Assembly (NCBI GenBank): GCA_041694835.1
Contig: JBGFRZ010000082.1
Coordinates: 52,266 to 116,265, forward strand
Reading direction: 5' to 3'
DNA: 64,000 bases
Source of the DNA: Ignavibacteria bacterium
Lineage (GTDB): Bacteria; Elusimicrobiota; Endomicrobiia; PHAN01
In this document: in pieces, positions 13,582 to 56,489 of the stretch
Layout of the letters: the number at the start of each line of letters is the position of its first letter
Position numbering within the stretch: the first letter of the stretch is position 1
The notes under the pieces: model-generated
What the model saw: only the letters and a program-made list of their open reading frames with translations
Told to the model about the DNA's origin: nothing
The model's database searches: none
Translations under genes and position numbers: made by a program

Positions 13582-13596
13582 ATTATTCCTCCGCTT

Positions 13597-15411
13597 TTAT
13601 TTTCTTGATGCCTCGAGTTTTATCTGTTCAATAAAGTTTGACAGCTCCGTGTCATTTGGGTTTATGTTTAACACCGCTTCATAATTTGCAATCGCTTCGT
13701 CATATCTTCCGAGAGCATAATATGAAGCGGCAATATAACTGTAGGCGTCGGTCAAAGTGTTGTCGATTGAAAGGACGTACTCAAGATAGCTTATGGCATC
13801 CTCATAGTTTCCCGCTTCATAACTGGAGAGTCCTGCCTGATAGTAATCCGCAGCGTCACCTTCCGAAGGAGCGGCTTCTTCGTCAACAACCTCTTCACCC
13901 TCAAGAGCGCTGCTTTTCGGCTTTTCTCTTATAAAGATTTTACCGTCATCTTCAAGTTTTCTTATGACATCCATTATTTTCTTTCTTCCTTCTTCTGTCT
14001 GTAACGGCGTTACGGATTGGGTGTACTGCATTTCTTCTTGAATAAGTTGGACCGCGTTAGACGACATGTTGGCAAAAAACTTATTTACCACATCCTGAGG
14101 CACTCCTTTGAGTGAGCGGGCAAGAAGTTCCGAATTTTTCAAATCTGGAAAGTTAAGTATTGTCTGCATCGTCTGATCCGTGAAGTTCTTAATGTCATCA
14201 AACTTCAATATAAACTTTCTGACCCTGTCGTAGAGTTCCGGTTTTTCGTTCTGTAGATAATCCAGTATGTTGTCCCTTGTTACGTTGTCAACCTGATCAA
14301 GCACTTTCAAAAGATGCTCTATGCCGCCTATTAGGAAGTCTATCTTTTCTTTTATGTCGTCGTCTATCTTCATTACCTTATCCCTCGTCATCTGTCTTAT
14401 GGTCGCCATCTCTATGGCCACCTGCGACTGAACCTGCGCCGAAAGGCTGAGAAGTATCTCTTTGACATGCTCGGGTTTAAGATAACTTATTACGAGAGCT
14501 ATTATTCTTGCGCTTTCTTTCCTTATTAAATATATAAGTCTTTTAAGATTTTCGTCATCTACATAGTGAAACGGTTTGTACTTTTTTTTCTCCTCTTCCA
14601 GCGCTTCAAGCTCAGCCGCAGAAAGAGCGCCGCCTCCGCCTCCTCCTTCACCGCCTTCTGGCTCCCCCTCGGGGTTTTCGAATTTTGAATCCACGGTAAC
14701 TTCTGTTCCGCCCTTTTCCCTCATCGTTTTTACATATGCACGGAAAAAGCCAGCAAGAGGACCGAAAAGAAAAAATAAAAGAAGAAATGCTATAACAAGA
14801 GGTATCAAAACAAGCGGCTTCAGCAGCTCTTCAAAAAATCCCGTCGTGAATTTTGTTTTCTTAAAATCTATCCGGTCACCGCGCTTTTGATCTATTCTGA
14901 GAGCGGAAGTAATAGCATCTTTTACGGCTTCAAGTTTCGACTCGGGAACTTTTTCATCGTGCAAAACAGTCACTATCTGTTTTTTCAGAGCAATTTTGAC
15001 CTCGACAGTTATTTTTTCCTGCTGGCCGGCCTCTTCTTTCGATTCGCCGACTTGATCCGCTTGAGAAACCGCTCTGGGCGCCGGAACACCCGGCAGCAGA
15101 TACTCCACCTCGCCTATCGGCTTCTTTTTTTCGGCCTTTCTTTCCCTGACGAAGGTTTTTCTGGTTATCGTATCAAGACCGAATTCGACATCGACTATGG
15201 CTATCGCTTTATCCGGTCCAAGTATCCTGTCAAGGATGTCTTTCTGAACGTACTCCGTCTTTTCTTTTTCGTACTTGAGTTCATGTTCTATCAGTGAGAT
15301 TTCCGCAGACTGCGGGGTCATCTGTCCATAAAGATAAACAAAAGAAGAAAGAGCCAGTAAAAGTGCCACCGCGCTTTGTTTCAAATTTTTAAGCTGTTTT
15401 AATTTTTTCAT
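13597..15411 (-). CDS. membrane protein fusing FliF/YscJ-like periplasmic ring-building motif, TM helix, FliG-like middle+C-terminal domains and C-terminal TPR repeats (604 aa)
   Basis: N-terminal signal/TM anchor MKKLKQLKNLKQSAVALLLALSSF. The periplasmic segments AIAIVDVEFGLDTITRKTFVRERK and ITVEVKIALKKQIVTVLHDEKVPESKLEAVKDAITSALRIDQKRGDRIDF resemble FliF ring-building regions (compare SARVHLAMPKPSLFVREQK and VTVTLEPG...VVHLVSSAVAGL). A second TM helix is PLVLIPLVIAFLLLFFLFGPLAGFF, followed by a Gly-rich linker. Then ESARIIALVISYLKPEHVKEILLSLSAQVQSQVAIEMATI ... DIKNFTDQTMQTILNFPDLKNSELLARSLKGVPQDVVNKFFANMSSNAVQLIQEEMQY..EEGRKKIMDVIRKLEDDGKIFI follows the FliG/MgtE-N fold pattern. TPR repeats lie at the C-terminus. 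Confidence 0.5.
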   Translation of the reverse strand: MKKLKQLKNLKQSAVALLLALSSFVYLYGQMTPQSAEISLIEHELKYEKEKTEYVQKDILDRILGPDKAIAIVDVEFGLDTITRKTFVRERKAEKKKPIGEVEYLLPGVPAPRAVSQADQVGESKEEAGQQEKITVEVKIALKKQIVTVLHDEKVPESKLEAVKDAITSALRIDQKRGDRIDFKKTKFTTGFFEELLKPLVLIPLVIAFLLLFFLFGPLAGFFRAYVKTMREKGGTEVTVDSKFENPEGEPEGGEGGGGGGALSAAELEALEEEKKKYKPFHYVDDENLKRLIYLIRKESARIIALVISYLKPEHVKEILLSLSAQVQSQVAIEMATIRQMTRDKVMKIDDDIKEKIDFLIGGIEHLLKVLDQVDNVTRDNILDYLQNEKPELYDRVRKFILKFDDIKNFTDQTMQTILNFPDLKNSELLARSLKGVPQDVVNKFFANMSSNAVQLIQEEMQYTQSVTPLQTEEGRKKIMDVIRKLEDDGKIFIREKPKSSALEGEEVVDEEAAPSEGDAADYYQAGLSSYEAGNYEDAISYLEYVLSIDNTLTDAYSYIAASYYALGRYDEAIANYEAVLNINPNDTELSNFIEQIKLEASRK

Positions 15412-17971: not shown

Positions 17972-18817
17972 CTAAACATTGTCTATCAGCCTTGTCCTGC
18001 CAACCTTGGCGGCTATCAGGATTCTTAAATTATTTTTCAGCGATATTCTCCCCTCAATATTCGTTAACGTTTTCGGATCGACAATTTCTACATATTCAAG
18101 ATTTATCCCGGAGATTTTTGAAACCGCTTTAGTTATATATTTTTTTACCGATACAATGTCTTTAAGATACCCCTCTGAAATTTTGACTTTCGCGTCCGAT
18201 ATCGCTTTATAAATTAATGCCGAATCTAATTTTTGACCCGTCGAAAGATATTTATTTCTGCTTGAAAACGCCAGTCCGAATTTTTCTCTTATAGTCGGAC
18301 ACGAAATGATTTTCACGGGGATATTTAAATCATCTACCATTTTTTCTATGATTTTCAGTTGTTGAAAATCCTTCGTGCCGAAATACGCTCTTGTCGGTTG
18401 GATAATGTTAAACAGTTTTAAGACGACGGTTGTAACTCCGCGAAAATGTCCCGGGCGGAATTTTCCGCAAAGTATGTCTGAAAGATTTTTCACTTCAACA
18501 AAAGTCAGATGCTCTTGTTTATAGATATCGTTTGTGGAAGGATAGAAAATTATGTCGACGCCAGTTTGTCGACAAATTTTTTTGTCTTGGCGAAATGTGC
18601 GTGGATATTTTTCAAAATCCTCGTTTTTGCCGAACTGCGCGGGATTTATAAATATCGAAACGACAACGAGAGCATTTTCTTTGCGAGCCCTTTTTATCAA
18701 AGAGAGATGTCCTTCGTGGAGCGCCCCCATCGTAGGGACAAAGCCGATTGTTTTGCCACACTTTTTAAGCTTTACAAAATATCTTTGGGCAACAACGGGT
18801 GAAGTGATTATCTTCAT
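17972..18817 (-). CDS. panC: pantoate--beta-alanine ligase (pantothenate synthetase)
   Basis: MKIITSPVVAQRY...GFVPTMGALHEGHLSLI (HxGH motif) ... FGKNEDFEKYPRT. Length and motif order are typical of PanC. The track ORF starts 19 codons upstream, but MKIITSP is the likely start. Confidence 0.85.
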   Translation of the reverse strand: MKIITSPVVAQRYFVKLKKCGKTIGFVPTMGALHEGHLSLIKRARKENALVVVSIFINPAQFGKNEDFEKYPRTFRQDKKICRQTGVDIIFYPSTNDIYKQEHLTFVEVKNLSDILCGKFRPGHFRGVTTVVLKLFNIIQPTRAYFGTKDFQQLKIIEKMVDDLNIPVKIISCPTIREKFGLAFSSRNKYLSTGQKLDSALIYKAISDAKVKISEGYLKDIVSVKKYITKAVSKISGINLEYVEIVDPKTLTNIEGRISLKNNLRILIAAKVGRTRLIDNV

Positions 18818-19018
18818 TTTGAAACCGCTGAAAAACCTGTCAATAGTCCACAGTCCGCAGATTCTGTCGACCATCGACTATCGACTAAATTCTTTTGGGT
18901 GTCAGAAGGCCTTTTTCAATACCCTCATTTTACAAATGTTCGATGCTTCAGACGATAAAAATCGACAATATTTAACAATGCTCCGACGATAAATTCGAAC
19001 AAATGTTCGAATTTTCAG

Positions 19019-19891
19019 TCAGAGATTTTTGCTAAAAAATCTCGTTATTGTTTTCTTATACTCATCCGTATGCTCTATATAAGCTGTGCCATGGCCGTGC
19101 GAATCGAAAACGACCAGTTCCTTGGGTTCCTCCGCTTTTTCATAAACCCTTTTTACCGCTTCAACCGGAATGTTTTCATCGCCAGAAGTAGCCAACAAAA
19201 GAACCGCTGTCGGCGAAACTTTCGATATATTTCGCATCGGAGAGTATCTCTCGGGCGAATGACCCAGGCGGATTATCGCACCCAGAATCGTAAGAACAAC
19301 AAGTGGGTGCCGCGGGAGATTAAGAAAAAGTTTCGCATGGTGGGCTGTAATTTCGTTGAAAGAATCAAAAGGGCTTTCGGCCACAACTGCGTTTATTCTT
19401 TTGTCTTTGGAAGCAGCGTATATTGCAGCGACACCACCCATAGAAAATCCGAAAACGCCTATCTTCGCCGACAGAGAAGGTTTTTCCTCTTTGAGATATT
19501 TCACGGCTGAGAGCATGTCCTCAGATTCATATTTTCCCATGGAGGTTTTATTTCCGCCACTTTCTCCGTGATTCGTAAAATCGAAATATAGAAGATTGTA
19601 ATGCTGATGGAGAAAAAATGTCGAATATAAAACATCGCCTTTAGAAGCGCCCCATCCGTGACAAATTATTATAGTTTTGGAAGTATTTTTCTGCGAAGTT
19701 ATAAACCAACCTGATATTTTTCGTCTGCCGGATTTAAACTCTATTTTTTCAAAAGGAATTTTTAAGTTGTCCGGCGTTACATAATCTCTTATGCGAGGTG
19801 CATTTAAAATTAAACGAGACGAAAACCATGCCCAAATTAAACAAGTGGTTAGAAAAATAAGTGCCCAAAAAACCGCAGGGTTGAGTTTCAA
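19019..19891 (-). CDS. alpha/beta-hydrolase fold protein with N-terminal TM anchor
   Basis: HGWGASKGD...FDFTNHGESGG and nucleophile elbow GFSMGG. C-terminal His/Asp follow. Confidence 0.6.
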   Translation of the reverse strand: MKLNPAVFWALIFLTTCLIWAWFSSRLILNAPRIRDYVTPDNLKIPFEKIEFKSGRRKISGWFITSQKNTSKTIIICHGWGASKGDVLYSTFFLHQHYNLLYFDFTNHGESGGNKTSMGKYESEDMLSAVKYLKEEKPSLSAKIGVFGFSMGGVAAIYAASKDKRINAVVAESPFDSFNEITAHHAKLFLNLPRHPLVVLTILGAIIRLGHSPERYSPMRNISKVSPTAVLLLATSGDENIPVEAVKRVYEKAEEPKELVVFDSHGHGTAYIEHTDEYKKTITRFFSKNL

Positions 19892-19892
19892 T

Positions 19893-21317
19893 CTATATCT
19901 TCCCCCATGGTTTTCTTTTTACAAATCGCCCGTGTCCGACGGTGCCGGTAAATTTTCCGTCTTTCGCTACGATTTTTCCGCGAGAGATTGTAACGGCGGG
20001 GTAACCTTTTAATTTCATACCCTGGAAAGGCGACCAGTCGCATCTGGTCTGCATATTATTAAAATCAATAACAACCCGTTTATTTGGGTCAAAGACGCAG
20101 ATATCGGCGTCGGAGCCGACTTTGATTGTTCCTTTCTGAGGGTATAGTCCGAAAATTTTGGCGGGGTTCGTTGAGACGACTTCCACGAATCTGTTGAGCG
20201 AGAGTTTTTTCTTGTTAACACCCGCGGTAAATATCGTCGGAACCATCGTCTCAAGCCCCGGTATACCGAATGGAATTTTTGTAAAATCCCCCTGCCACAT
20301 CGCTTTTTGTTTTGTGTCAAATGTGCAGGTGTCGGTTCCTATGGTGTCAATGTATCCTTTTTTCAATCCTTCCCAAAGACCCAGCTGGTCGTGTTTCTTT
20401 TTTACCTGCGGACAAATGCCGTAAAGGTGTCCCGTTTCCCTGGATTTATAAACATCGTCGGTCAAAAGGAGATAAGTCGGACAGGTCTCCGCCCATATTT
20501 TTACGCCGTCTCTTTTCGCCTCGCGCACAATCTCGGCGCTTTCCGACGCCGACATATGGACGATAAAAAGCCGTCCGCCCGTTTCTTTTGCCCAAGTCGC
20601 CGCGCGGCGGACCGCCTCGTATTCTGTATAACAAGGACGAGCCATCGCGTGAAGATAGGCGCCGTATTTATTCATCATCTCCTGCGTGTGGTATCTCTCA
20701 ATAAGGAGGTCCAGGACAATCGCACTCTCGGCGTGGACAAGGATTAGTCCTCCGTGTTTTGCCGTTTCCTCAAGCCCTTGAAAAAGTATTCCGTCGTCAG
20801 CCATCCAGCCCTGAGAGCGATAAATCATAAACATCTTAAAAGAGGTCACACCGTCCTTTACGAGGTCGCTCATATCTCTTCTCACATTCTCGTTCCACTT
20901 GGTTATTCCGCCGTGAAGAGCGTAATCCACGCACACTTTTCCGTCGGCTTCTTTCTTCCTCGCCTCAACGGTTTCAATAAGAGAACCCCCTTTGTCCTGT
21001 ATGGCTATGGCGAAATCAATAACGGTGGTCACGCCGCCGCATGCCGCGGCTTTCGTGCCATTTTCAAAATCGTCGCATGAAACCGTTCCGCAAAAAGGCA
21101 GCTGCAAATGCACATGGGCATCAATCGCGCCGGGAAAAACAAGCAATCCCCTGGCATCGAGCATATGGGCGCCATCTGCTCTGATGTCTTTTTTGACCGA
21201 GACGACTTTCTCTCCTTTGATGGCGATGTCGGCAACAAATGTCTTTTCGGCAAGAACGATTTTTCCGCCTTTAACGACTAAATCAAATGACATAAAACCT
21301 CCTCTTAATATAGGCAA
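19893..21317 (-). CDS. dihydropyrimidinase / D-hydantoinase (cyclic amidohydrolase)
   Basis: GAIDAHVHLQLPFCGTVSCDDFENGTKAAACGGVTTVIDFA parallels the dihydropyrimidinase metal-binding N-terminus (GGIDPHTHLQMPFMGT..DDF..GTKAAL.GGTT). Confidence 0.8.
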   Translation of the reverse strand: MPILRGGFMSFDLVVKGGKIVLAEKTFVADIAIKGEKVVSVKKDIRADGAHMLDARGLLVFPGAIDAHVHLQLPFCGTVSCDDFENGTKAAACGGVTTVIDFAIAIQDKGGSLIETVEARKKEADGKVCVDYALHGGITKWNENVRRDMSDLVKDGVTSFKMFMIYRSQGWMADDGILFQGLEETAKHGGLILVHAESAIVLDLLIERYHTQEMMNKYGAYLHAMARPCYTEYEAVRRAATWAKETGGRLFIVHMSASESAEIVREAKRDGVKIWAETCPTYLLLTDDVYKSRETGHLYGICPQVKKKHDQLGLWEGLKKGYIDTIGTDTCTFDTKQKAMWQGDFTKIPFGIPGLETMVPTIFTAGVNKKKLSLNRFVEVVSTNPAKIFGLYPQKGTIKVGSDADICVFDPNKRVVIDFNNMQTRCDWSPFQGMKLKGYPAVTISRGKIVAKDGKFTGTVGHGRFVKRKPWGKI

Positions 21318-21321
21318 AGAA

Positions 21322-21600
21322 AAATAGGAAATAGGGAACGATGGAAAGAACGGTGCCAGATGTCAGATGCAGGTTAAAACGACAGATACACGTTGTAGCG
21401 GCACCGCCTTGCAGTGCAAATAATTGGCATCGTAAAGCTTGTCCTCGCAGGGGAACGATGCATCTACCTGTATTCTGTATTTGCTTTTCCTTTATCCTGC
21501 ATCCTGTATCTGTTTTTTGGTATCCGGGATCCGGTATCCGCTATCGCTTTTGTCTGTTCTACTGCTCCGACCTCTGACCTCTCATCTCTGACCTCTGTTT
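21322..21600. repeat. long imperfect hairpin-like intergenic element: purine-rich arm (aggcaaagaaaaataggaaatagggaacgatgg...cagatgtcagatgcagg) then pyrimidine-rich arm (ttcctttatcctgcatcctgtatctg...gacctctgacctctcatctctgacctctg)
   Basis: Word-level reverse complementarity between the two halves, e.g. gatgcagg versus cctgcatc and cagata versus tatctg. No ORF is present. Confidence 0.45.
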
Positions 21601-22072
21601 ATTCCAGCATATATTCTTCAAAAGGAATTCCTTTCTTAATCAATTCTTCGCGCCAGAGTTGTTTTGCCTTCGGCATTTTTTCGCGTGAGCGTCTCACCCA
21701 TTTTGATTCGGGCGGCGAAAAGAGTTCCGCCGCCGTCTGATACCATACATATGCATATTTTATTGACGATTCTTCTCGTTCTCTTTTATTGTTAAACTCA
21801 ATGATTTCTGTTTGTATTTCGTATTCTTTCTGTGAGATTTTTTTTGAATCCAACTTCTTTTGAAGTGATGTTTTTTCTTTGGAGAGTTTTTCGTCAAAAA
21901 ACTTCTCTTTTAATTGAGGGTTTTCGTGCCATGCCCAAAACTTTTCGCCTTCAAGATACGCCGAGCGAGCACGCATTACAACATCAACATAAATGAGCGC
22001 ATAAACTGCAATTATGGTAGCAACGACCGAGGCGGCAATTCTTTGCCATTTTTTAGGAAATAATTTATTCAT
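21599..22072 (-). CDS. hypothetical membrane-anchored protein (157 aa)
   Basis: Track ORF with an N-terminal TM segment (IAASVVATIIAVYALIYV). No recognisable motif. Confidence 0.3.
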   Translation of the reverse strand: MNKLFPKKWQRIAASVVATIIAVYALIYVDVVMRARSAYLEGEKFWAWHENPQLKEKFFDEKLSKEKTSLQKKLDSKKISQKEYEIQTEIIEFNNKREREESSIKYAYVWYQTAAELFSPPESKWVRRSREKMPKAKQLWREELIKKGIPFEEYMLE

Positions 22073-22469
22073 CTTTGTTTTTTATCTTTTTATGTCTTTA
22101 ATGTCGTGCGTCCGATAAAAATGTTCTTTTAATCTCTATAATCGTTTTCAACCTGCTCTTCTTTTTCCACAAACTCTTTTATCTACCTGCGATGATTCGG
22201 TTACTCCAAAAAATTTTCGTCTTGTTTTTCTCATTTGAGCGAGCACATTAAGAGAGGTTTAAAAATTTTTCTTCGTTGAGCGATTCTGCTTCTTCGTAAC
22301 TTCCCTGTCTCCAATAGATTTTTCTTCCATCTGATATTTTTTTCTAATTTTCATAATAGTGTTCCGGACAATGTTTTCATTGGTTTATTTCGCACAGAGG
22401 ATTTTTAATTGAGACCCGTCTCCAATTCCATCCAATTCCAAATTCTGACAATTTACCACTGCTTTTATT

Positions 22470-23474
22470 CTAAACAGATAGTAATTTTAATTGATGAATA
22501 TGTTGATACCGATAATGATTACGTTTAATCAAAGAATGCTTTTTTTCAATGTCAACTTCTTTCAATCTTCGAATAGCAATTTTTACATATTCACTATTAG
22601 AATCAATTCCAATGTATTTCTTTTCTAATATCTTGGCAGCGACTGTCGTGGTAGCGCTCCCAACAAAAGGGTCTAATATAATGGCATTTTTAGAAAAAGC
22701 CGATAACTGAATCAAATATTCACAGATCGCTAATGGTTTCACTGTTTTATGTAGATTATAATCTCCTTTTTCTTTCTTTGATGGTTTGGGCAACAGGAAC
22801 ACTTTATCAATCTCAGTGTTTATGTTTTCAGTGGTAATTACATTTGCTGGATACATATTTTTACCCAATCTAATATTCGTATTTACCAAACCAACTTTGT
22901 ATTTCAACATGTTGTTTAGATAAGTAGTGTCTGTCGGTTTTTGCGCCACAGCAATAGGTTCAAAACAAGATTTAATCTGCGGGGTCTTCCATCCGTGCAA
23001 TCTTTCTCTAATAATATTTTTTTGGTCATTGCCAGCTCCCATCTTATCAATAAAATGATTAAGCCCCATTGCCTTTGCCTGATTTTGAGTATAGAGCCAC
23101 ATGAAAACATCTCTGATCTCAAATCCCGCATCGTCCAATGCTGATGCCATTCTATGATATAGGCGAGGACTAGAAAATGAAAAGAAAAATCCACCGGGTT
23201 TCAATAATCTGATAATTTCCTTTGATATTTTTAAATACCAACTATAAAATCTGACGCCTTGTTCTCTCTCAAATTTCATTCCAGCTGGCAATGACTTTAT
23301 GATGTAGTGATTGCGTGTATTAGTTACTACTTCATGATTCCATTGGTTGTCCAGTTTATCTAAAAAATACGGGGGGTCAGTTATAACAAGATCTATTGAA
23401 TTGCTTTCAATTTGCGGAAGCACGTTTAATGCATTATCACATATAATTTTATTCAAAAATTTTTTGTTTTTCAT
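22470..23474 (-). CDS. DNA methyltransferase, N6-adenine/N4-cytosine (PF01555-type, DPPY motif)
   Basis: LVITDPPYF is motif IV. ILDPFVGSATTTVAAKILEKKYIGIDSNSEYVKIAIRRL is the C-terminal AdoMet motif I. The gene is visibly AT-richer than its flanks. Confidence 0.8.
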   Translation of the reverse strand: MKNKKFLNKIICDNALNVLPQIESNSIDLVITDPPYFLDKLDNQWNHEVVTNTRNHYIIKSLPAGMKFEREQGVRFYSWYLKISKEIIRLLKPGGFFFSFSSPRLYHRMASALDDAGFEIRDVFMWLYTQNQAKAMGLNHFIDKMGAGNDQKNIIRERLHGWKTPQIKSCFEPIAVAQKPTDTTYLNNMLKYKVGLVNTNIRLGKNMYPANVITTENINTEIDKVFLLPKPSKKEKGDYNLHKTVKPLAICEYLIQLSAFSKNAIILDPFVGSATTTVAAKILEKKYIGIDSNSEYVKIAIRRLKEVDIEKKHSLIKRNHYRYQHIHQLKLLSV

Positions 23475-23477
23475 ACT

Positions 23478-23972
23478 CTATTTTATTTCGGAAGGTTTTT
23501 TACCGTCAAACTTATCATATAGAATTTTGTAAATTTTTATTTTTATCTCTCTATCGCAAGTTCTTACCACATTTGAATCGGCAACTTTTATTACTCTGCC
23601 TTTTTCGTCATAAACCCATCTATTCCTATCTCCACGATTACACTTTTGACATTGAGGAATAATATTATCCGCAACTAATGGTTTACGAGGATTCATATGA
23701 GCTTTTTGTAATTTTGTTTTTGTGGCAGGCCAATGCAAATGAGGCAGTCCTTCTTCGGAACCACATGTGGCGCATCTAAAATGATATTTTTCTTTCATCT
23801 TACTCCAATCGTCCGTATCACTAATTCTATGTCCTTTTTTAAAAGATGGGTAGGGCTTTTCTAATGTGTATAATTGATACTCCCCCCTTTTAAGATTCAA
23901 GACGATATTATCTCTGCCCCCTGCCACAATCCACCAACCTTTTTGTGCTCCTAAATGCCTGGCCTGTTGCAC
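23478..23972 (-). CDS. HNH endonuclease (probable restriction-endonuclease partner; 5' part appears frameshifted, with a protein-like reading continuing to ~24190 in two frames)
   Basis: FRCATCGSEEG...NIIPQCQKCNRGDRNR is an HNH/Zn-finger motif. The track ORF begins at a GTG. Upstream, the same frame continues protein-like (..LVYLAQNYPYTNKVTKEELTRFIREFDPDVND) up to a TAA. A 45-codon ATG ORF (MDKNEIYRIYHTIIKECHAKHLEKYGVGLPRLHDASGNFKRMRLF) sits in another frame. Confidence 0.45.
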   Translation of the reverse strand: MQQARHLGAQKGWWIVAGGRDNIVLNLKRGEYQLYTLEKPYPSFKKGHRISDTDDWSKMKEKYHFRCATCGSEEGLPHLHWPATKTKLQKAHMNPRKPLVADNIIPQCQKCNRGDRNRWVYDEKGRVIKVADSNVVRTCDREIKIKIYKILYDKFDGKKPSEIK

Positions 23973-24205
23973 ATCATTGACATCAGGGTCAAACTCTCGA
24001 ATAAATCTCGTTAGTTCTTCTTTAGTAACTTTATTCGTATATGGATAGTTCTGAGCTAAATAAACTAAAACAAGCGCATCCTTTTAAAATTGCCAGAAGC
24101 ATCATGAAGTCTAGGTAAACCAACCCCATATTTTTCCAAATGTTTTGCATGACACTCTTTAATAATAGTGTGATAAATTCTATATATTTCGTTCTTATCC
24201 ATATT

Positions 24206-25414
24206 TTATGTTTTCATTTCGAGTGTCACGCAGGATTCTACGGGGCAAATCACGGCGCAGAGGCCGCATCCGACGCATTTTTCTTCGTCGACCGACGGCA
24301 AACGGTTGCTGTCAAGGGTAATCGCTTGATGTCCCCCGTCGGAACATCCAAGATAACAAAGGTCACATTTCTCGCAGGTTTCTTTGTCGATTTTGCTGAC
24401 CGGCTTTTTTTCTCTTGAAAGAGCGACGTGCGAAGAGATTTTTTGTGCAGAAACGCCGACCATGTCGGATATTTTTGCAAAGCCCTTGTCGTCCATGAAG
24501 TTTGAAAGTCCGTCTTTGAGGTCCTCGACGATTCTATAGCCGTAATGCATTGCCGCTGTACAGACCTGAAGTCCCGACGCTCCCATAAGTAAAAACTCGG
24601 CAGCGTCCCGCCAAGTGGTTATTCCGCCCATTCCCGATATCGGAAGACCCAGACGTTCGTCGAGATAAAGTTCGGTAATGAATCTGAGCGCAATCGGTTT
24701 TACGGCGGGACCTGACAATCCTCCGAGAGCGGATTTTCCGTTTACCGTTGGGAGCGGAATCAGTGTTTCAAGGTCAACACCAATTACCGCCTGAACGGTG
24801 TTTATCGCGGCTATGGCATCCGCTCCGCCGTTTTTTGCGGCAAGAGCGGGCTCTCTCATATCTGTGATATTAGGTGTGAGTTTTGCAAGAACAGGCATTT
24901 TGCCCGCGGCTTTTTTTACCCATCCGCAGACCTTCTCGACGTTTGAAGGCGATTTCCCCGTCGCAGAGCCCATTCCTTTTTCAGGCATTCCGTGGGGACA
25001 TCCGAAGTTTAATTCAAGTCCGTCGACGCCGCAGTCAAGCACTTTTTTCGTTATTTCCGTCCACGACTCTTCGTCGTTTGCAACCATTAGCGACGCTACT
25101 ACGACATTTTTTGGATATTTTTTTTTCGTCTCGCGGATTTCTTTTAAGTTTACTTCAAGGGTTCTGTCGGTTATCATCTCTATGTTTTCAAGCGCGATGA
25201 GTTTTTTGTCCTCGTAGTCAAGTCCGGCAAGGCGCGGGCTGACGTTGACAATCGGAGTTTTTTCTTCCAATCCGAGAGTTTTCCAGACGGCGCCGCCCCA
25301 GCCGGCGTCAAACGCCCTCTGAATCATCTCGCCGGTATTTGTCACCGGACTTGAAGCCAACCAGAACGGATTTTGGGATTTGATACCACAAAAATCAATC
25401 GAAATGTCCGCCAT
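24206..25414 (-). CDS. preA: NAD-dependent dihydropyrimidine dehydrogenase subunit PreA-like (DHOD-like TIM barrel + two 4Fe-4S ferredoxin motifs)
   Basis: The N-terminus MADISIDFCGIKSQNPFWLASSPVT and the NFGCPHGMPEKGMG motif are PreA/DPD-like. The C-terminus CEKCDLCYLGCSDGGHQAI...CVGCGLCAVICP carries 2x[4Fe-4S] motifs. Length is 402 aa. Confidence 0.75.
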   Translation of the reverse strand: MADISIDFCGIKSQNPFWLASSPVTNTGEMIQRAFDAGWGGAVWKTLGLEEKTPIVNVSPRLAGLDYEDKKLIALENIEMITDRTLEVNLKEIRETKKKYPKNVVVASLMVANDEESWTEITKKVLDCGVDGLELNFGCPHGMPEKGMGSATGKSPSNVEKVCGWVKKAAGKMPVLAKLTPNITDMREPALAAKNGGADAIAAINTVQAVIGVDLETLIPLPTVNGKSALGGLSGPAVKPIALRFITELYLDERLGLPISGMGGITTWRDAAEFLLMGASGLQVCTAAMHYGYRIVEDLKDGLSNFMDDKGFAKISDMVGVSAQKISSHVALSREKKPVSKIDKETCEKCDLCYLGCSDGGHQAITLDSNRLPSVDEEKCVGCGLCAVICPVESCVTLEMKT

Positions 25415-25430
25415 AAAACCTCCTGACTCC

Positions 25431-25545
25431 GCTATAGCGGGAAGTTAAAGGTCAAAGGATAAAGGGTAAAGGTCAAAATATTTAGATTTTATACCTTTAA
25501 TTTTAACCTTTCACCTTAAATTTTAACCTTTATATTCTTCTTATC
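25431..25545. repeat. purine-arm/pyrimidine-arm imperfect hairpin element (aaaggtcaaaggataaagggtaaaggtcaaaat ... tacctttaattttaacctttcaccttaaattttaaccttt)
   Basis: The two arms are reverse complements at word level. The element is intergenic between the M20 amidase and preA. Confidence 0.45.
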
Positions 25546-26757
25546 AATCTCCAAAACTGTGTTTAGTAAAACATTTATGCCTTTGCAACAGTCATCAAGT
25601 GATGTAAATTCTAACTCGCAATGACTGTGTCCGTCTTTAGACGGAACAAAAATCATCGTGGCGGGAATTATATCGGCGACATACTGAGCGTCGTGACCTG
25701 CTCCGCTGTACATCTTTTTGCTTGTGTATCCGAAGGCGTCCGCACTTTTTTGGACAAGAGCGACTAATTCTTCGTTGAATCTGACCGTTTTGCGCGACCA
25801 TGCCTCTTCGCATTTCACTTCGCACTTGTCAAATTCTTTTGGAATGTTTTTGATTATTTCCACAACTTGTTTTATGACTTCCGGTTCCTTGTGTCTTGCG
25901 TCCAATGAAAAATCCACATAGTCGGGTATGACGGTATGGATATTCGGATGGCAGATTATATTACCCGTCGTATAGACAAGAGCGCTGTCAAGTTTGTCAA
26001 GTTCCCGGTGAAGATATTTAATCGCGGAAGCCGCGGCCAATAGAGCGTCTCGTCTGAACTTCATCGGCGTTGTTCCCGCGTGGTCGGACTGCCCATAAGT
26101 TCTTATTCTGTAATTTACCATTCCCAAAACACCTTCTACAACACCGATTTCTTTTTTTTCGGCTTCAAGCACGGGGCCTTGTTCAATATGCAACTCCAAC
26201 ATCGCTATGTAATCTTTCGGATTGAGCCGGTTCGATTGAGCGCCGACGTATCCACTCTCTTTTAGCGCTTCGCCGAATGTTTTTCCGTCGGGGCTTTTTG
26301 ACGAGAGTATTTTTTCTTTTTCAAACTTGCCGCAGACGACGCCTGATGAGAGCATCGCCGGAGGATAGAGTGAGCCCTCTTCGTTGGTCCAGATCATAGC
26401 GGTAACAGGGTGATTGTGGGGAATTTTTTGCGTAGCGAGTGTTTCCACTACTTCAAGAGCCGCAATGACTCCCAAAATGCCGTCGTAGTTGCCACCGTTT
26501 CTTACGGAATCGCAGTGGGAAGCAATCACAATTTTCGGAAGGCCTTTTTCGGGACCGGGGTGCGTCGCATACATATTTGCCATGTCGTCGGTTACGGTTT
26601 TTGCGCCTACTGAATTCATTCTTTTGACAAACTCGGCTCTTGCCTGAAGGTCTTCTTTCGACAGCGAAAATCTCGTTATTCCGCCGCGGGCCGTAGCGCC
26701 GAATTTCGCGAAAGTTTCGATTTTATTTTTTACTCTTTCTTTGTTGCAAGTCAGCAT
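25516..26757 (-). CDS. M20-family hydantoinase/carbamoylase-type amidase (N-carbamoyl-beta-alanine / N-carbamoyl-amino-acid amidohydrolase, beta-ureidopropionase-like)
   Basis: ASHCDSVRNGGNYDGILGVIAALEV and the HIEQGPVLE motif are typical of the allantoate amidohydrolase/AmaB family. Confidence 0.7.
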   Translation of the reverse strand: MLTCNKERVKNKIETFAKFGATARGGITRFSLSKEDLQARAEFVKRMNSVGAKTVTDDMANMYATHPGPEKGLPKIVIASHCDSVRNGGNYDGILGVIAALEVVETLATQKIPHNHPVTAMIWTNEEGSLYPPAMLSSGVVCGKFEKEKILSSKSPDGKTFGEALKESGYVGAQSNRLNPKDYIAMLELHIEQGPVLEAEKKEIGVVEGVLGMVNYRIRTYGQSDHAGTTPMKFRRDALLAAASAIKYLHRELDKLDSALVYTTGNIICHPNIHTVIPDYVDFSLDARHKEPEVIKQVVEIIKNIPKEFDKCEVKCEEAWSRKTVRFNEELVALVQKSADAFGYTSKKMYSGAGHDAQYVADIIPATMIFVPSKDGHSHCELEFTSLDDCCKGINVLLNTVLEIDKKNIKVKI

Positions 26758-26903: not shown

Positions 26904-28742
26904 CTATCTACCATCCAACTCCAGTTCTTTCAACTTTTCCTGCTTCGGTATTCCTTCTTCATCCCATCCGCGATGGACATAATACTCCATAACCATTTTT
27001 GCGACATTCGGGACCACGCCTTTCGCTTTTCCTTCTTTTTTCGGATATACGGTAATTCTCGACGGTTCCAGGTCATCTTTTCTTGAAATGCCGAGGCGCG
27101 TGTTGTAGAGCCGTTTTAAATCGAACAATCGCTCGCCTGTTTTCATATAGTCGTCGAGTGTCCAGTCCCATCCACAAACGGCGTTGACCCAGTTTGAAAT
27201 CTGCGACGGACCCACACGGGCGTGAAACAGAAATTTACAGAGTCCGAGCGGATTAAATAATGATATAAAATTTTGCATCTCAAAAACAATTTTCGGTTTG
27301 TCGGTTTCTTCAAACTGGTTCGGCGGGGCGGTGATTCCCAGATCTTTGCAAGGGACGCCCCTATCAAGAAAGTATGTGAGACCTTCAAGATGACACGCAC
27401 CTCTTGCGGCGGTCGCGTAGTTGATTGCCATAGAGACATGTCCTCTCGGGTCGTGGGCGGGAAAGTCAAGTCCTTTGTTGTGAGAAACATACTCGATAGT
27501 ATTTTTGCCGATGGCTTTTGCCGCATCTCTGACACCTTTTGCAAGGAGAACACCGATGTTTTTTTTGTAAGCGGTCATCTTAATTATTTCAACGAGAGTC
27601 TTCGCGTCGCCCCATTTGAACTCAACGTCTCCAGTGTCTGCTCTTGTGATTTTTCCTTTCTCGTAACACTCAATCGCAAACGCGGCGACAGAGCCCATGG
27701 AAATCGTATCCATACCGAGCTTATTTGTGAGTTCGTTTATATACGCCAATACATAGAGGTCGTTATTTAAAACATTTGAGCCGAGCATCGCGACGGTCTC
27801 ATACTCGGGATAGTGGCCACAGAAACTTCCGAAGTTCTTTAACTCGCCCTTGACGAGCTTGCCGCAGCCGATGGGACATGCCCAGCAAGCGTAGTGCTTG
27901 ACCCAGATTTTTTCTCTCATCGCCTGTCCCGAAATTTTTACAATATCGGGATACGTTCCAATGGCGTAATTTTTTATCGGAAGGTCGCCGAACGACTCAA
28001 CTGCAGGAGAGCCGCCGGCAGTACCAAATTCTCCGAGGGCTTTTGCATTTTCTTTTATCGCGGGTATTTCTTCTTTAAGCAGTGCTCTTAATTTTTCGGG
28101 GTCTGCGACGGCGACTCTTTTCCCCTGACCTTTTACGACGATAGCTTTAAGGTTTTTTGAGCCCATGTTGGCACCGATGCCCGAGCGCGCCGCAAAACGG
28201 GAATTGGGCGGGTCAAAACAAATTGCGGCTATACTGACAAGATTTTCTCCAGCAGGGCCTATCGCGGCGACGAGATGCTTCTCATGTCTCTTTGAGAGAA
28301 TTTCACCGGTTTCGTAGGTATCCTTTCCCCACAAATCACTGGCATCCTGTATCCTGCATCCTGCATCTATTATTAGATAAACCGGCTTATTGGATTTTCC
28401 CGTTATTAAAATTCCGTCATATCCGAGCATCCTGAATTCCGTCGGCCAATGGCCGCCCACGGTCGCTTCGTTCCAAATGCCCGTAAGCGGCGATTTTGCG
28501 CAGACGGACATTTTGCAGGCAGTCGGCACGACTGTCCCGGTTAAAAGCCCCGACAAAAACAAAATTGGATTTTCTTCTGAAAGTGGCGCGAGGTTAACAG
28601 GGGCTTCGTTGTAAAGAATCTTTGCGGCAAGACCCGAGCCGAGCGTATATTTTTTGACATCCGTCTCATTGATTGGTTTCTCGCCGATTTTTCCCGACGA
28701 CAAATCAACGGTTAAAATTTTCCCATGAAATCCGTTCGGCAT
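26904..28742 (-). CDS. aldehyde:ferredoxin oxidoreductase (tungsten-containing AOR family)
   Basis: The N-terminus MPNGFHGKILTVDLSSGKIGEKPINETDVKKYTLGSGLAAKILY matches the AOR N-terminus pattern (M.G..GKILRVDL..G.I). Length is 612 aa. Confidence 0.8.
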   Translation of the reverse strand: MPNGFHGKILTVDLSSGKIGEKPINETDVKKYTLGSGLAAKILYNEAPVNLAPLSEENPILFLSGLLTGTVVPTACKMSVCAKSPLTGIWNEATVGGHWPTEFRMLGYDGILITGKSNKPVYLIIDAGCRIQDASDLWGKDTYETGEILSKRHEKHLVAAIGPAGENLVSIAAICFDPPNSRFAARSGIGANMGSKNLKAIVVKGQGKRVAVADPEKLRALLKEEIPAIKENAKALGEFGTAGGSPAVESFGDLPIKNYAIGTYPDIVKISGQAMREKIWVKHYACWACPIGCGKLVKGELKNFGSFCGHYPEYETVAMLGSNVLNNDLYVLAYINELTNKLGMDTISMGSVAAFAIECYEKGKITRADTGDVEFKWGDAKTLVEIIKMTAYKKNIGVLLAKGVRDAAKAIGKNTIEYVSHNKGLDFPAHDPRGHVSMAINYATAARGACHLEGLTYFLDRGVPCKDLGITAPPNQFEETDKPKIVFEMQNFISLFNPLGLCKFLFHARVGPSQISNWVNAVCGWDWTLDDYMKTGERLFDLKRLYNTRLGISRKDDLEPSRITVYPKKEGKAKGVVPNVAKMVMEYYVHRGWDEEGIPKQEKLKELELDGR

Positions 28743-29027: not shown

Positions 29028-29816
29028 CTATTTCAAAAAATCACAGATAGACCCAACTAAACCAGAAAAATTGCCAATACCGTCAAGATGGTCGTAATTA
29101 TTCAAAACAAACAATCCCCCTCCAAGTTTAATATCATCAATAATCAGTTGCACTTCTGTCTGTTTTACTGTTTTTCTGGTTTTTCCACTTTCATTATATT
29201 TATCAAAATCCCTATATCTTGCCCAATCAAGAGTAATAAAACCATATTTGATTTGTAAATTTTCTTTTGTAAAAATGACCGTATATTTATCTTTACCATA
29301 TTTTGCATTTAATACATCTTGATCCATCAAAAATAAATGAGATAAAAATTGTCCGATTCTTTCTCTTGTTGTACCTTTTGCCGATAATATAAAAGCCTTT
29401 TTTATTTTTTCAAAATTATCTTTAACAACTACAATATCACTATCAAATTTCTTGATGTGACTTGTATTTTTTCTCACAAGACACAGAGAATTGGTAACAT
29501 AAGAAATAATATCGTTATAAGTTTTGTGGTTTGTTGCCAAATAATTTAATTTATTTTCCTTGAAGTAAGCATTGAGTAAATATACTATACTTTCTTCTAC
29601 CAATTTTCCAAGAACCGAATCTTTGCTTGATTTTTCTTGCCTTGCTTCGTCCTCTGTTTTCTTCTTATCAAATTGCGAAGCATATTTTTTAGCATATTTA
29701 TTTGCATCTGAAAAAATGAAGTATTTATTCAAGTTTACCCCAACATTTAAACTACCTTTGTCTTTTATCACTTTGCCTAATTTTCCTTCTAAATAACTTT
29801 TGTGAACTAAATCCAT
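29028..29816 (-). CDS. hypothetical protein, candidate type II restriction endonuclease (partner of adjacent methyltransferase)
   Basis: Immediately downstream (18-bp gap) of the MTase gene. It is AT-rich with no recognisable family motif. The call rests on gene context only. Confidence 0.35.
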   Translation of the reverse strand: MDLVHKSYLEGKLGKVIKDKGSLNVGVNLNKYFIFSDANKYAKKYASQFDKKKTEDEARQEKSSKDSVLGKLVEESIVYLLNAYFKENKLNYLATNHKTYNDIISYVTNSLCLVRKNTSHIKKFDSDIVVVKDNFEKIKKAFILSAKGTTRERIGQFLSHLFLMDQDVLNAKYGKDKYTVIFTKENLQIKYGFITLDWARYRDFDKYNESGKTRKTVKQTEVQLIIDDIKLGGGLFVLNNYDHLDGIGNFSGLVGSICDFLK

Positions 29817-29833
29817 AATAAACCCTCTTTCCT

Positions 29834-30706
29834 TTATAAAAGTTTAGGTTGTCTTGCAACAATCTTTATATTTTTTTCTGCTATTTCACAATATTCTCGG
29901 CAATTATCTATATAAATATATTTTCTTTCAGTTTTTACACTAACAACTGGAACTGTTCCAGTTCCCCCAAAAGGGTCTAAAACTATATTATCAATGTATG
30001 AATAAAATTTAACTAAACGATATATAAGTTTTTCTGGAAAGGGTGCCGGATGTCCTTTTGGTTGAGTTTGAGGTTTTATGTCCCAAAATGAATTTGAAAA
30101 TTCTATAAATTCCTCTTTTGTAATATCTATCTTTTTAGGTTCTCCCTCTAATTTTTTTTCTTCTTTACTAAACACTAATACGAATTCATACGGTTGAACA
30201 ACATAAGGATTTGATGGAGATTTCCAAGAACCCCAAGCAGTTCTTTTCGAAATTGCTTGTTTATACCACAATATATCACCTCTCATAATATAGCCAATTT
30301 TTCTCATTTGATTAACGACATCTACAAAAAGTGGTTGATATTGTCCGTCAGCCGTCACACTTGGTACATTTATGCAAATTCTACCTCCTTTAATTAAAAC
30401 ACGATAGCATTCAAACCAAACTTTTTCAAGCCAATCTAGATATTCCTTGTAAGGCATATTATCATAATGGTTCTTGTATGGTTTTCCTACATTATATGGT
30501 GGGGATGTAATTATAAGATGAATAAAATTTTCCGGCATTAATTTCATAACTTCTACACAATCACCACAAATAACTTGATTTATAAACCTATTTTCCGATT
30601 GAACAAGAATTTCTTTTTGAGTAATTGTGTGATATGGTATTACCGTTTCTTCCAACAAATTATTCTTTGTTACTTTCTTTTTTTTATATTCCATTGATTT
30701 ATCCAA
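29834..30706 (-). CDS. DNA methyltransferase, N6-adenine/N4-cytosine (PF01555-type, SPPY motif)
   Basis: ITSPPYNVGKPY is motif IV. VLDPFGGTGTVPVVSVKTERKYIYIDNCREYCEIAEKNI is motif I. The gene is AT-rich. Confidence 0.8.
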   Translation of the reverse strand: MDKSMEYKKKKVTKNNLLEETVIPYHTITQKEILVQSENRFINQVICGDCVEVMKLMPENFIHLIITSPPYNVGKPYKNHYDNMPYKEYLDWLEKVWFECYRVLIKGGRICINVPSVTADGQYQPLFVDVVNQMRKIGYIMRGDILWYKQAISKRTAWGSWKSPSNPYVVQPYEFVLVFSKEEKKLEGEPKKIDITKEEFIEFSNSFWDIKPQTQPKGHPAPFPEKLIYRLVKFYSYIDNIVLDPFGGTGTVPVVSVKTERKYIYIDNCREYCEIAEKNIKIVARQPKLL

Positions 30707-30822: not shown

Positions 30823-31959
30823 CTAAATGTTTGACATTATCTCATCGGTGTGTTCGCCAAGAAGAGGGGCGGGCTTAAAATGTTTGTCGTCGCATCCGTC
30901 TATTTTTATCGGGGTGCCGGCGACTTTGATTTTTCCTATTTTTTTCTGATTCAATTCTACTATCATGTTCCTGTGGATTATCTGCGGATGTTTACAAACG
31001 CGGGATATGTCGTTCACAGGCCCGCAGGGAACGCCATGTCTGTTGAGGTTGTTTAAAAGTTCCTTTATCGTGTGCGCTTTTGTATATCTCTCGATTATCG
31101 ATTTCAGTTTTTTCTCGTTTTTCAAACGCTTTTCATTGTTTTCGAAGTGTTTGTTGTGTATCAAATCTTCGCGGCTTATCGCCAGGCAAAACTCCATCCA
31201 GAGATCCTCGTTTCCGCAGGCTATCGCCAAAAATCCGTCTTTTGCCTTAAATATGTCGAACGGGCAGAGAGACGGATGAAGCGAGCCTATGCGCTCGGGA
31301 GTTTTATTAGTAGCGTTATATCTTACTATGGCATTTTCAAGAACCGCTACGATGGAATCGACCATTGATATGTCAATACGGCAGCCCAATCCTGTTTTTT
31401 CTCTTCCGTAAAGGGCTGTAGTTATGCCGTAAGCCGCAAACATGCCGGCAAGTACATCTGCCATTGAAGTTCCGACTCTCGTCGGAGGCGTGTCGGGATA
31501 ACCTGTGATGCTCATTATTCCGCCGACAGCTTGGGCGATAACGTCGTATCCGGCGTATTGCGAAAGCGGCCCCGTCTGGCCGTATCCGGTTATCGAAGCA
31601 TAAATGAGTTTTGGATATTTTTTTTTGAGCGAGTCATAATCAAGACCTAATTTTTTCATTGTTCCCGGACGAAAGTTTTCAAGAAGAATGTCAGTATTTT
31701 TAAGCAATCGCTTAATAATTTTTATTGACTCTTTATTTTTTAAATCCAAAACAACGCTTTTTTTTCCGCGGTTTACGCTTATAAAATATCCGCTCTGTCC
31801 GTCGATAAACGGTCCGAAGAGTCTTGAATCGTCGCCGGTCTTCGCTCTTTCAATCTTTATGACCTCGGCCCCCATGTCGGCAAGCATCATAGAGCAATAT
31901 GGGCCGGAAAGCACCCTTGTAAAATCAATGACTTTCACGCCTTTAAGCGGTTTTTTCAT
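30823..31959 (-). CDS. CoA-transferase family III (CaiB/BaiF-type)
   Basis: GVKVIDFTRVLSGPYCSMMLADMGAEVIKIE is the family III N-terminal signature. Confidence 0.8.
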   Translation of the reverse strand: MKKPLKGVKVIDFTRVLSGPYCSMMLADMGAEVIKIERAKTGDDSRLFGPFIDGQSGYFISVNRGKKSVVLDLKNKESIKIIKRLLKNTDILLENFRPGTMKKLGLDYDSLKKKYPKLIYASITGYGQTGPLSQYAGYDVIAQAVGGIMSITGYPDTPPTRVGTSMADVLAGMFAAYGITTALYGREKTGLGCRIDISMVDSIVAVLENAIVRYNATNKTPERIGSLHPSLCPFDIFKAKDGFLAIACGNEDLWMEFCLAISREDLIHNKHFENNEKRLKNEKKLKSIIERYTKAHTIKELLNNLNRHGVPCGPVNDISRVCKHPQIIHRNMIVELNQKKIGKIKVAGTPIKIDGCDDKHFKPAPLLGEHTDEIMSNI

Positions 31960-55467: not shown

Positions 55468-56484
55468 ATGAAAACAAAGGTAAAATGTAAACAAAGAGAG
55501 AACAAACAATCGTTTGTAAGAGAGAACGTAACCTCATCACTTTCTTATCGGATAACTATACCAAATTTTGAATATGGTGCTATTTGGGAAGACCCGATTA
55601 GCGGACATAAAATTGGCTGCCTTGATGTATCAAAAAAGGAAGATGTTGAAAGGCTGATGCAGGGCAAAAAAGCAATCTTAGCGGTTCAAGACCCGCCGTA
55701 TAATGTTGATATAAATGACGAGTTTGGAAACTTGCCTTTGGAAAAATACATTAACTGGAGCGAAAAGTGGGTTGATAATACAATAGATATTCTTGATAAA
55801 AATTCCTCTCTTTATATTTGGCTTGGTGCAGATATTAGAAATGCCTTGCAACCACTACCAGATTTTATGATTATGATGAGAAACAAACCCGTTCAAATTA
55901 GAAACTTTATTACAATGAGAAATCAACGGGGGTACGGAACTCAGAAAAACTGGATGGCAATACGGCAAGAATTGCTTTACTACATAAAAGGCGAGCCGAT
56001 TTTTAATGTTCAAGCCGAATATACAGACATACTAAAAAAAACAAAGGGATACTATAAAGAAGTAAACGGAAAAGTTACGGAAAATTTTGAGAGAAGCAAA
56101 TCCTTAACTATCAGAGCAGGAAATGTTTGGCACGATATACAACAGGTTTTCTATTTAATGCATGAGAATGTAGAGGGTTGTTTTGCTCAAAAACCACTTA
56201 AATCAGTAAAAAGAATTATTGAAGCAAGTAGTAATAAGGGCGACATTGTCATAGATTTTTTCGGCCATTCCGGTTCTACTTTGTTGCAAACGGAATTAAG
56301 TAAAAGAAAATGTTATACGATGGATATAAATCCCGCATATTGCAAAATAATGGCCGCCCGCCTGCTCCATTATCGCCGAACAGGCGAAACTGGCTGGGGC
56401 AGGACAAAAATTTTAAAGGATGGGAAAATTTTAGTGCAGGACGAACAATTATTAGGCACACCAACCTTATTAGATTTAATTTAA
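55468..56484 (+). CDS. DNA methyltransferase, N6-adenine/N4-cytosine (PF01555-type, DPPY motif), inserted between gyrB and gyrA
   Basis: AVQDPPYNVDI is motif IV. IDFFGHSGSTLLQTELSKRKCYTMDINPAYCKIMAARL is motif I. The gene is AT-rich. Confidence 0.8.
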   Translation: MKTKVKCKQRENKQSFVRENVTSSLSYRITIPNFEYGAIWEDPISGHKIGCLDVSKKEDVERLMQGKKAILAVQDPPYNVDINDEFGNLPLEKYINWSEKWVDNTIDILDKNSSLYIWLGADIRNALQPLPDFMIMMRNKPVQIRNFITMRNQRGYGTQKNWMAIRQELLYYIKGEPIFNVQAEYTDILKKTKGYYKEVNGKVTENFERSKSLTIRAGNVWHDIQQVFYLMHENVEGCFAQKPLKSVKRIIEASSNKGDIVIDFFGHSGSTLLQTELSKRKCYTMDINPAYCKIMAARLLHYRRTGETGWGRTKILKDGKILVQDEQLLGTPTLLDLI

Positions 56485-56489
56485 ACAAT

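Follow-up and report, generated by a model that had tools for sequence, protein, structure and literature searches.

The DNA considered here is a window of 64,000 nucleotides (nt), positions 52,266 to 116,265 of contig JBGFRZ010000082.1 (GenBank assembly GCA_041694835.1), from an organism labeled Ignavibacteria bacterium that GTDB places among the Endomicrobiia of the Elusimicrobiota. In this window, a cluster of pyrimidine-degradation genes is interrupted by an AT-rich island that holds the two genes of a putative restriction-modification (R-M) system: a nuclease gene, R, followed by a methyltransferase gene, M. The GC content of the island is 33.8%, against 42.5% for the whole window and 45-50% for the flanking pyrimidine genes, which bears out a preliminary description in which both genes were said to be AT-richer than their neighbors. 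Only 1.6% of segments of the same size are equally AT-rich, and all of these lie in other R-M islands. From 19 to 32 kb of the window, every gene is on the minus strand. The features of the region are collected in Table 1.

The preliminary description had also suggested that a frameshift disrupts the 5' part of the nuclease gene. The two observations behind this suggestion hold: the frame of a 164-amino acid (aa) open reading frame (ORF) that starts with GTG stays open upstream of that codon, up to a TAA at 24086-24084, and a separate ORF of 45 codons, starting with ATG, lies in another frame. We joined codons 1-39 of the ATG ORF to the frame of the downstream GTG ORF. The resulting protein of 241 aa has 994 homologs of about 240-250 aa, with 65-78% identity, 100% coverage and a best E-value of 1e-129: the joined frames match homologs of about 245 aa from end to end. 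The alignment is continuous across the junction, where homologs read G-N-F-T-K-D-A-L-V-L and the window reads G-N-F-K / K-D-A-L-V-L, the slash marking the change of frame. Aligning both frames to the homologs places residues 1-39 on their conserved N-terminus, with I6, Y10, H18, K20, L22, G26, V27, L29, P30, L32 and F39 invariant, and the remainder in the frame of the GTG ORF. The start of the homologs coincides with the ATG that opens the 45-codon ORF and not with the GTG; the objection that the nuclease might simply start at the GTG therefore fails.

The DNA of the junction tells the same story. Homologs read GGN AAN TTT ACN AAR GAY, and the window reads GGC AAT TTT AA AAG GAT: in the DNA of 82 homologous loci, there is one extra base, compared to the window, exactly at the junction. 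Codon 40 is ACN in 79 of these 82 loci, ATA in two and TCT in one. Of 84 related loci, collected from both genomes and metagenomes, 79 have the nuclease gene without interruption. Relative to its homologs, the gene of the window is thus split by the deletion of a single nucleotide in codon 40 (about 24084/24085). The 164-aa GTG ORF and the 45-codon ORF should be merged, in annotations, as one frameshifted restriction-endonuclease pseudogene. Presumably no functional nuclease is made from the locus, because the ATG frame ends after 45 codons and the remaining frame lacks a good start. A stretch of about 230 base pairs (bp) at 23972-24205, originally described as non-coding or remnant sequence, does exist; it is not a spacer, as it consists of the 5' third of the nuclease gene (77 codons).

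Table 1. Features of the island and its surroundings. Flanking genes are listed in order of transcription: M20, PreA, island, 157-aa ORF, dihydropyrimidinase, alpha/beta hydrolase, PanC. The last two rows belong to a second island of the window.
Feature	Position in window	Strand	Remarks
M20 amidohydrolase	25516-26757	-	Flank, transcribed before PreA
PreA-like dihydropyrimidine dehydrogenase subunit	24206-25414	-	Core gene; PF01180 and Fer4_21
AT-rich island	22073-24205	-	Methyltransferase gene and nuclease gene
Nuclease gene (winged helix + HNH)	23478-24202	-	725 nt against 726 expected; 1-nt deletion relative to homologs
Nuclease 5' fragment, 45-codon ATG ORF	24065-24202	-	Codons 1-39 authentic, then KRMRLF and stop
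Frameshift site	24084-24085	-	One base of the Thr40 codon missing, inside TTTTAAAAGG
Nuclease 3' part, residues 41-241	23478-24083	-	In its own frame; invariant C144, C147, H169, C185, C188, N189
GTG ORF, 164 aa	23478-23972	-	First in-frame start of the 3' part is the GTG at 23972
Promoter-like site TTGACG-18-TAAAAT	23480-23509	-	Within the nuclease gene near its 3' end, just before the methyltransferase gene
Beta-class N6/N4 DNA methyltransferase, 334 aa	22470-23474	-	PF01555; 3 nt downstream of the nuclease stop
Non-coding stretch (128 bp) downstream of the methyltransferase	22342-22469	none	No detectable homology
Gene X, remnant of the 3' end	22145-22341	-	2-nt deletion and in-frame stop
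Intergenic stretch (72 nt) before the 157-aa gene	22073-22144	none	Missing from L167 in the alignment
157-aa membrane-anchored Elusimicrobiota protein	21599-22072	-	Core gene, outside the island; 371 homologs
Dihydropyrimidinase-type amidohydrolase	19893-21317	-	Flank
Alpha/beta hydrolase	19019-19891	-	Flank
Pantoate-beta-alanine ligase (PanC)	17972-18874	-	Flank
PF01555 methyltransferase (second island)	29834-30706	-	E-value 1e-43
BsaWI-like restriction endonuclease (second island)	29028-29816	-	PF18643, E-value 1.6e-6

The partnership of the two genes is a property of the whole family. In every one of the 84 related loci with enough room to judge, the nuclease gene is followed by a methyltransferase gene on the same strand, after a gap of about 3-70 nt. 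The partner belongs to the PF01555 family in 79 of the 84 loci; in the other group, five near-identical Elusimicrobia contigs whose nuclease is 73% identical to that of the window, it is a C5-cytosine methyltransferase (PF00145). These five loci (L081-L083, L086 and L087; Elusimicrobia RIFCSPLOWO2_01_FULL_54_10 and identical contigs) amount to a methyltransferase swap within one nuclease family, and such a swap would imply that the target site contains a cytosine. A more distant homolog of the nuclease, 43% identical, is found on the 22.9 kb Thermus thermophilus plasmid pTthSNM1-7d (L165), directly upstream of a site-specific methyltransferase. There, the nuclease is annotated as a hypothetical protein (13755-14603), the methyltransferase lies at 12815-13744, and the pair adjoins a transposase and a VapC/CopG pair; this plasmid could be a culturable source for the characterization of the family. 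Judging from gene content and order, this conserved adjacency points to a Type II system in which nuclease and methyltransferase are encoded separately; in the window copy, the nuclease frame is not intact.

In 62 of 63 other hosts, the cassette has a lower GC content than the DNA on either side (on average 35.5% against 41.6%). Hosts that carry a name, counted for the nuclease or for the methyltransferase that accompanies it, include Patescibacteria, Elusimicrobia, Omnitrophota, Verrucomicrobiia and an Altiarchaeales archaeon. Both the host range and the AT-richness fit a mobile element. A search for avoided palindromes in 66 R-M gene pairs and their flanks, which are non-independent sequences, gave no clear target site: the lowest 4-mers were TCGA, GTAC and CATG, TCGA being scarce in the flanks as well; for GGCGCC, 10.4 occurrences were expected and 0 were counted.

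The methyltransferase gene of the window is full length and matches PF01555 with 114.4 bits for a cut-off of 26.7 (E-value 1e-32). Motif IV, TDPPYF, is found at about residues 31-36, and motif I, DPFVGSATT, at residues 268-276, which is the beta-class order; the initial identification of a PF01555 methyltransferase with a DPPY motif was thus correct. The DPPY form of motif IV favors adenine as the target base. Sequence matches in the PDB, among them DpnA (an N4-cytosine enzyme), MboIIA, CcrM and PvuII, cover the S-adenosylmethionine (AdoMet) region: only the C-terminal 80 residues or so match solved enzymes, and the matches include both m6A and m4C enzymes. The protein is 65-80% identical to the nuclease-linked methyltransferases of 79 related loci. 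All the homologs sampled in these 79 loci follow a nuclease gene, so the term orphan-like, which had been applied to the methyltransferase of the window, needs to be qualified: a solitary state through decay of the partner is plausible, the locus being a decaying pair, and the methyltransferase does not belong to an orphan family in the proper sense, such as Dam or CcrM.

The sequence of this methyltransferase is unusual. It deviates at six columns that are at least 97% conserved: L31I, I113L, I203L, L221E, G274A and F316I. The average number of such deviations in its homologs is 0.66, and only 0.8% of the homologs have as many as the window. Position 274 corresponds to glycine number three of FxGxG, the motif that binds AdoMet. 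Of 120 homologs, 117 have G there, as do all 65 locus copies whose sequence fits the motif pattern; alanine is unique to the window among the 120. These substitutions fit a weakened or relaxed modification. The change at position 274 could reflect selection that was relaxed once R had gone; or else the methyltransferase may have weakened first, which made it advantageous to lose R. However, M.PvuII tolerates a residue other than glycine at this very position of motif I, so the substitution is no proof of inactivity.

What kind of nuclease does the split gene encode? A search of 1.84 billion cluster representatives places its relatives in 465 clusters at 50% identity, and from such representatives we built an alignment of 62 sequences, 27-73% identical to the window protein. 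Across these diverse relatives, only C144, C147, H169, C185, C188 and N189 are invariant, and P172, N180, P183 and Q184 are at least 90% conserved. The AlphaFold2 model computed from this alignment has a confidence score (pLDDT) of 94.4; an earlier prediction based on 12 close homologs, with a pLDDT of 52, was set aside. The model consists of a helical, winged-helix domain (residues 1-120), a short, less confident linker, and a second domain (residues 133-231) in which a strand 165-169 ending in H169, a strand 181-185, and a helix 186-192 carrying N189 form a predicted beta-beta-alpha-metal finger. The two CxxC pairs, C144/C147 and C185/C188, would form a structural zinc site that staples the finger. 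Fold searches with the model return HNH domains, with PacI among the Foldseek matches.

Matches at the level of sequence are faint. A sequence search of the PDB with the nuclease gave nothing useful; the family profile has a single weak match in the PDB, the HNH domain of Cas9, with an E-value of 0.013; PF01844 is weakly matched by 4 of the 62 relatives, at best with an E-value of 0.0023; and profile matches of the nuclease itself are limited to a PHROG HNH endonuclease (8.5e-5), endonuclease VII (1.5e-3) and the PADLOC model of PtuB (1.5e-3). Weak as they are, the profile matches all point to HNH. With the predicted topology, the fold matches and the invariant H169 and N189, the label of HNH nuclease given at the outset is supported. 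The protein is a member of an uncharacterized winged-helix and HNH family without a close solved relative: we found no characterized member, and neither Pfam nor NCBIfam has a model for the family. This family is very common in groundwater candidate-phyla bacteria. The N-terminal winged helix presumably reads the target sequence and the zinc-stapled C-terminal HNH domain would cut the DNA, with His169 as a likely general base, Asn180 in a structural role, Asn189 as a metal ligand, and Cys144, Cys147, Cys185 and Cys188 holding the zinc.

We now turn to the place where the island sits. The genome is Endomicrobiia-like, and the PreA protein encoded next to the island is 86% identical, in amino acids, to PreA of L001, from the Endomicrobiia metagenome-assembled genome Yes70-21. 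The relative L166 has the synteny of the window without the island: PreA, 149 bp, a gene of 158 aa, dihydropyrimidinase, hydrolase and PanC. The Elusimicrobia HGW-1 loci L168 and L169 have PreA, 99 bp and the gene of 158 aa. These empty sites, in L166 and L168, confirm that the island splits the pyrimidine cluster, as had been claimed. In L001, a hicB/hicA-like pair occupies the same slot. Because relatives have either an empty site or a hicBA pair between preA and the 157-aa gene, the comparison indicates that the island is an insertion into a hotspot slot. The relatives align with the window, in nucleotides, up to about 24222-24225 and then again from about 22066-22076 onward. On the cassette side, homology with the R-M cassette of L084 (77% of nucleotides) covers 24203-22525, that is, it begins at the ATG of the nuclease, which lies 3 nt from the stop codon of preA; the cassette would thus have brought no upstream region, and would rely on read-through from preA. 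Searches of the flanks for direct or inverted repeats, terminators and Rfam families yielded nothing above chance, no transposase, integrase or recombinase gene was found at the island, and no remnants of hicA or hicB were found in the window.

On the other side of the island, the region from 22073 to 22469 has no ORF longer than 34 aa. The preliminary description of some 400 bp of non-coding or remnant sequence (22080-22470) was therefore right about the absence of genes; the part that is a remnant belongs to an unrelated gene, and not to the R-M system. This spacer had no match in the first 164 loci, and a match appeared only with L167, the closest relative (83% identity in the 157-aa protein). 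In nucleotides, 22341-22145 shares 80% identity with positions 1-199 of L167. There, these nucleotides form the 3' end of a gene, in an open frame whose stop lies 4 nt ahead of the counterpart of the 157-aa gene. We call the gene that ends here gene X; its only Pfam match is a TPR-like model with an E-value of 0.017. In the window, the tblastn match to gene X is split over two frames by a 2-nt deletion and a stop: comparison with L167 thus identifies 22145-22341 as a degraded remnant of a gene of which most has gone, plausibly on arrival of the cassette. For the other 128 bp and 72 bp of the spacer, no relatives are detectable, and 22342-22469 has no blastn or tblastx match to any locus compared, nor any Rfam match.

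The 157-aa protein that bounds the slot has a hydrophobic segment near its N-terminus and matches nothing in Pfam, NCBIfam or PADLOC. Those of its homologs that carry a source name come from Elusimicrobiota or Endomicrobiales, and in every locus examined preA is its neighbor. Between this gene and dihydropyrimidinase lies an intergenic region of 280 bp (21317-21599), with two overlapping 22-nt imperfect inverted repeats (21357-21398 and 21491-21518) and tandem GACCTCTGACCTC-like repeats.

Is the missing base a mutation, or an accident of the data? We consider that it probably is a real inactivating mutation. Several facts weigh against this, or against the interpretation of the locus in general. 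The missing base aside, the nuclease shows 0 deviations at columns at least 97% conserved among 118 homologs, and a gene that is flawless but for one base has the appearance expected of an assembly or sequencing indel. The deletion falls in the run TTTTAAAA, within a T4A4 context (TTTTAAAAGG) that is indel-prone on some platforms, and the exact methyltransferase sequence occurs on a single NCBI contig. Furthermore, the window nuclease reaches no Pfam or NCBIfam HNH model, and promoter-like sites are not more numerous in the region than shuffling would lead one to expect. Should the base be missing from the assembly only, the nuclease would be intact in the organism, as R is in most related loci, and the island would be a fully active Type II R-M system. 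We hold this to be unlikely, if far from negligible. About 45 other genes of the window show no broken frames, which suggests that indel errors are rare in this assembly; the affected codon is ACA or ACG in homologs, so that the ancestral codon probably made no long homopolymer; and the methyltransferase carries its own unusual substitutions. Inactivation of R by point mutation also recurs in the family: since three independent nonsense mutations, TGA at W133, TAG at W196 and TAA at E115, are present in the nucleases of the 84 related loci (in L158, L141/L143 and L162/L163), decay is recurrent in these systems. In some loci (L120, L145 and L162), it is the methyltransferase match that is split over frames.

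There is also the thought that the split gene is still of some use. A shift of -1 after the AAA codon restores the frame, and the next zero-frame codon, AGG, can be slow; phase-variable R-M genes are known in other bacteria. Low-level ribosomal frameshifting, or phase variation by indels at TTTTAAAAGG, might then yield a little full-length nuclease, regulated or switchable. However, the zero-frame codons AAT TTT AAA AGG contain no canonical X XXY YYZ heptamer, and tRNA-Lys slipping by -1 would be placed on UAA. Programmed frameshifting is therefore unlikely on this sequence; runs of 4 nt are too short for efficient slipped-strand variation, and the arrangement is present in 0 of the 82 homologous loci, whose frames are uninterrupted. 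We give this scenario very little credence. Nor do we put much faith in a 164-aa product, translated from the GTG, that would act as a truncated HNH nuclease in a different role. The ORF is open, and keeps the HNH domain (133-231) together with the recognition-helix and wing part of the first domain, but it lacks residues 1-77, that is, helices 1-3 of the winged helix and many invariant positions. No Shine-Dalgarno-like sequence was found before the GTG, no full-length homolog among those listed starts there, and the shorter homolog entries look like fragments, for the most part of short-contig origin.

Taken together, these observations lead us to propose the following history, to which we assign a probability of roughly 70%. 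An AT-rich Type II cassette, with R preceding M, would have been acquired horizontally and, oriented like the genes of the host operon, would have entered the short gap that separates preA from the 157-aa gene of an Endomicrobiia/Elusimicrobiota cluster for pyrimidine degradation and beta-alanine, with the removal of most of gene X. M, a beta-class amino-methyltransferase, would have protected the sites that R cuts. R would then have lost one base in codon 40, so that translation from its ATG ends after 45 codons, and M would have been retained, transcribed by read-through from preA and possibly also from the promoter-like site inside R (10 of 12 consensus matches). The locus would now behave as a solitary methyltransferase, presumably still active, on its way to decay.

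The window holds other islands of this kind. Its most AT-rich part, with GC values of 0.28-0.30, is a second R-M island (29028-30706, minus strand), located between a CoA-transferase gene (30823-31959) and an AFOR gene (26904-28742); in L168, this position is taken by a BrnT toxin/antitoxin pair. A third AT-rich pair, on the plus strand (55468-57221, GC 0.35-0.36), consists of a PF01555 methyltransferase (55468-56484, E-value 1e-28) followed by an ORF with no Pfam match, whose D...EVK motif resembles those of PD-(D/E)XK nucleases. A third R-M system is probable here, and the 64 kb would then hold three PF01555 methyltransferases. One may speculate, and we do so with considerable reserve, that the preA/157-aa and CoA-transferase/AFOR slots are dedicated landing sites where addiction cassettes that lack a promoter (R-M here, HicBA or BrnTA in relatives) repeatedly replace each other, expressed by read-through of the metabolic operon; and that the winged-helix/HNH nuclease, 65-78% identical across Patescibacteria, Elusimicrobiota and Altiarchaeales, with a methyltransferase partner also found in Omnitrophota and Verrucomicrobiia, belongs to an R-M system whose spread is recent and whose specificity is new.

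As for the host operon, the PreA-like, dihydropyrimidinase and M20 carbamoyl-amino-acid hydrolase genes are syntenic with PanC both in the window (17972-26757, minus strand) and in L166; HGW-1 has a CN-hydrolase in place of the M20 enzyme. Because genes of reductive pyrimidine degradation are syntenic with PanC, this arrangement suggests that the cluster provides the beta-alanine needed for pantothenate, and does not serve catabolism alone.

The locus can be viewed as a snapshot of what would be the first step in the decay of an R-M system: the nuclease is lost by a single base, and the methyltransferase is kept, yet with an odd change in its AdoMet motif. For annotation, the remnant of about 200 bp downstream of the methyltransferase is to be flagged. 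Once defined, the recognition site of the winged-helix/HNH family would add a family of restriction enzymes. The loss of R with retention of M, and the insertion in a slot, are ordinary, orthodox phenomena; a modest interest lies in the unnamed and widespread nuclease family, and in the evidence for a hotspot.

HNH is the second commonest fold of restriction endonucleases (PMC2441816). Among those of Type IIP, KpnI, Hpy99I and PacI resemble the nuclease of the window in being small enzymes encoded beside their methyltransferase, with a His-Asn-Asn/His motif stapled by a Cys4 zinc site. EcoKMcrA and TagI share with it the combination of an N-terminal domain that reads DNA and a C-terminal zinc HNH domain; however, these two enzymes are modification-dependent, have no cognate methyltransferase, and their N-terminal domains are not homologous to that of the window nuclease. 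Since the family described here is almost always coupled to a methyltransferase, its members, unlike McrA and TagI, should cut unmodified DNA. The methyltransferase shares with the beta-class PF01555 enzymes M.RsrI, M.MboIIA, CcrM, DpnA and M.PvuII the placement of motif IV (DPPY) before motif I (FxGxG), and differs from them by an alanine in place of the third glycine of motif I. In R-M cassettes, early loss of R with retention of M, and insertion accompanied by deletion of the target, are established behaviors. The locus resembles degenerate R-M systems by the point lesion in R, the retained M, the foreign composition, the loss of resident DNA, and the presence of toxin-antitoxin genes at the same slot in relatives; it differs from degenerate and mobile systems by the position of its cassette, 3 nt from the stop codon of preA, with none of the transposases, integrases or flanking repeats that were looked for around it.

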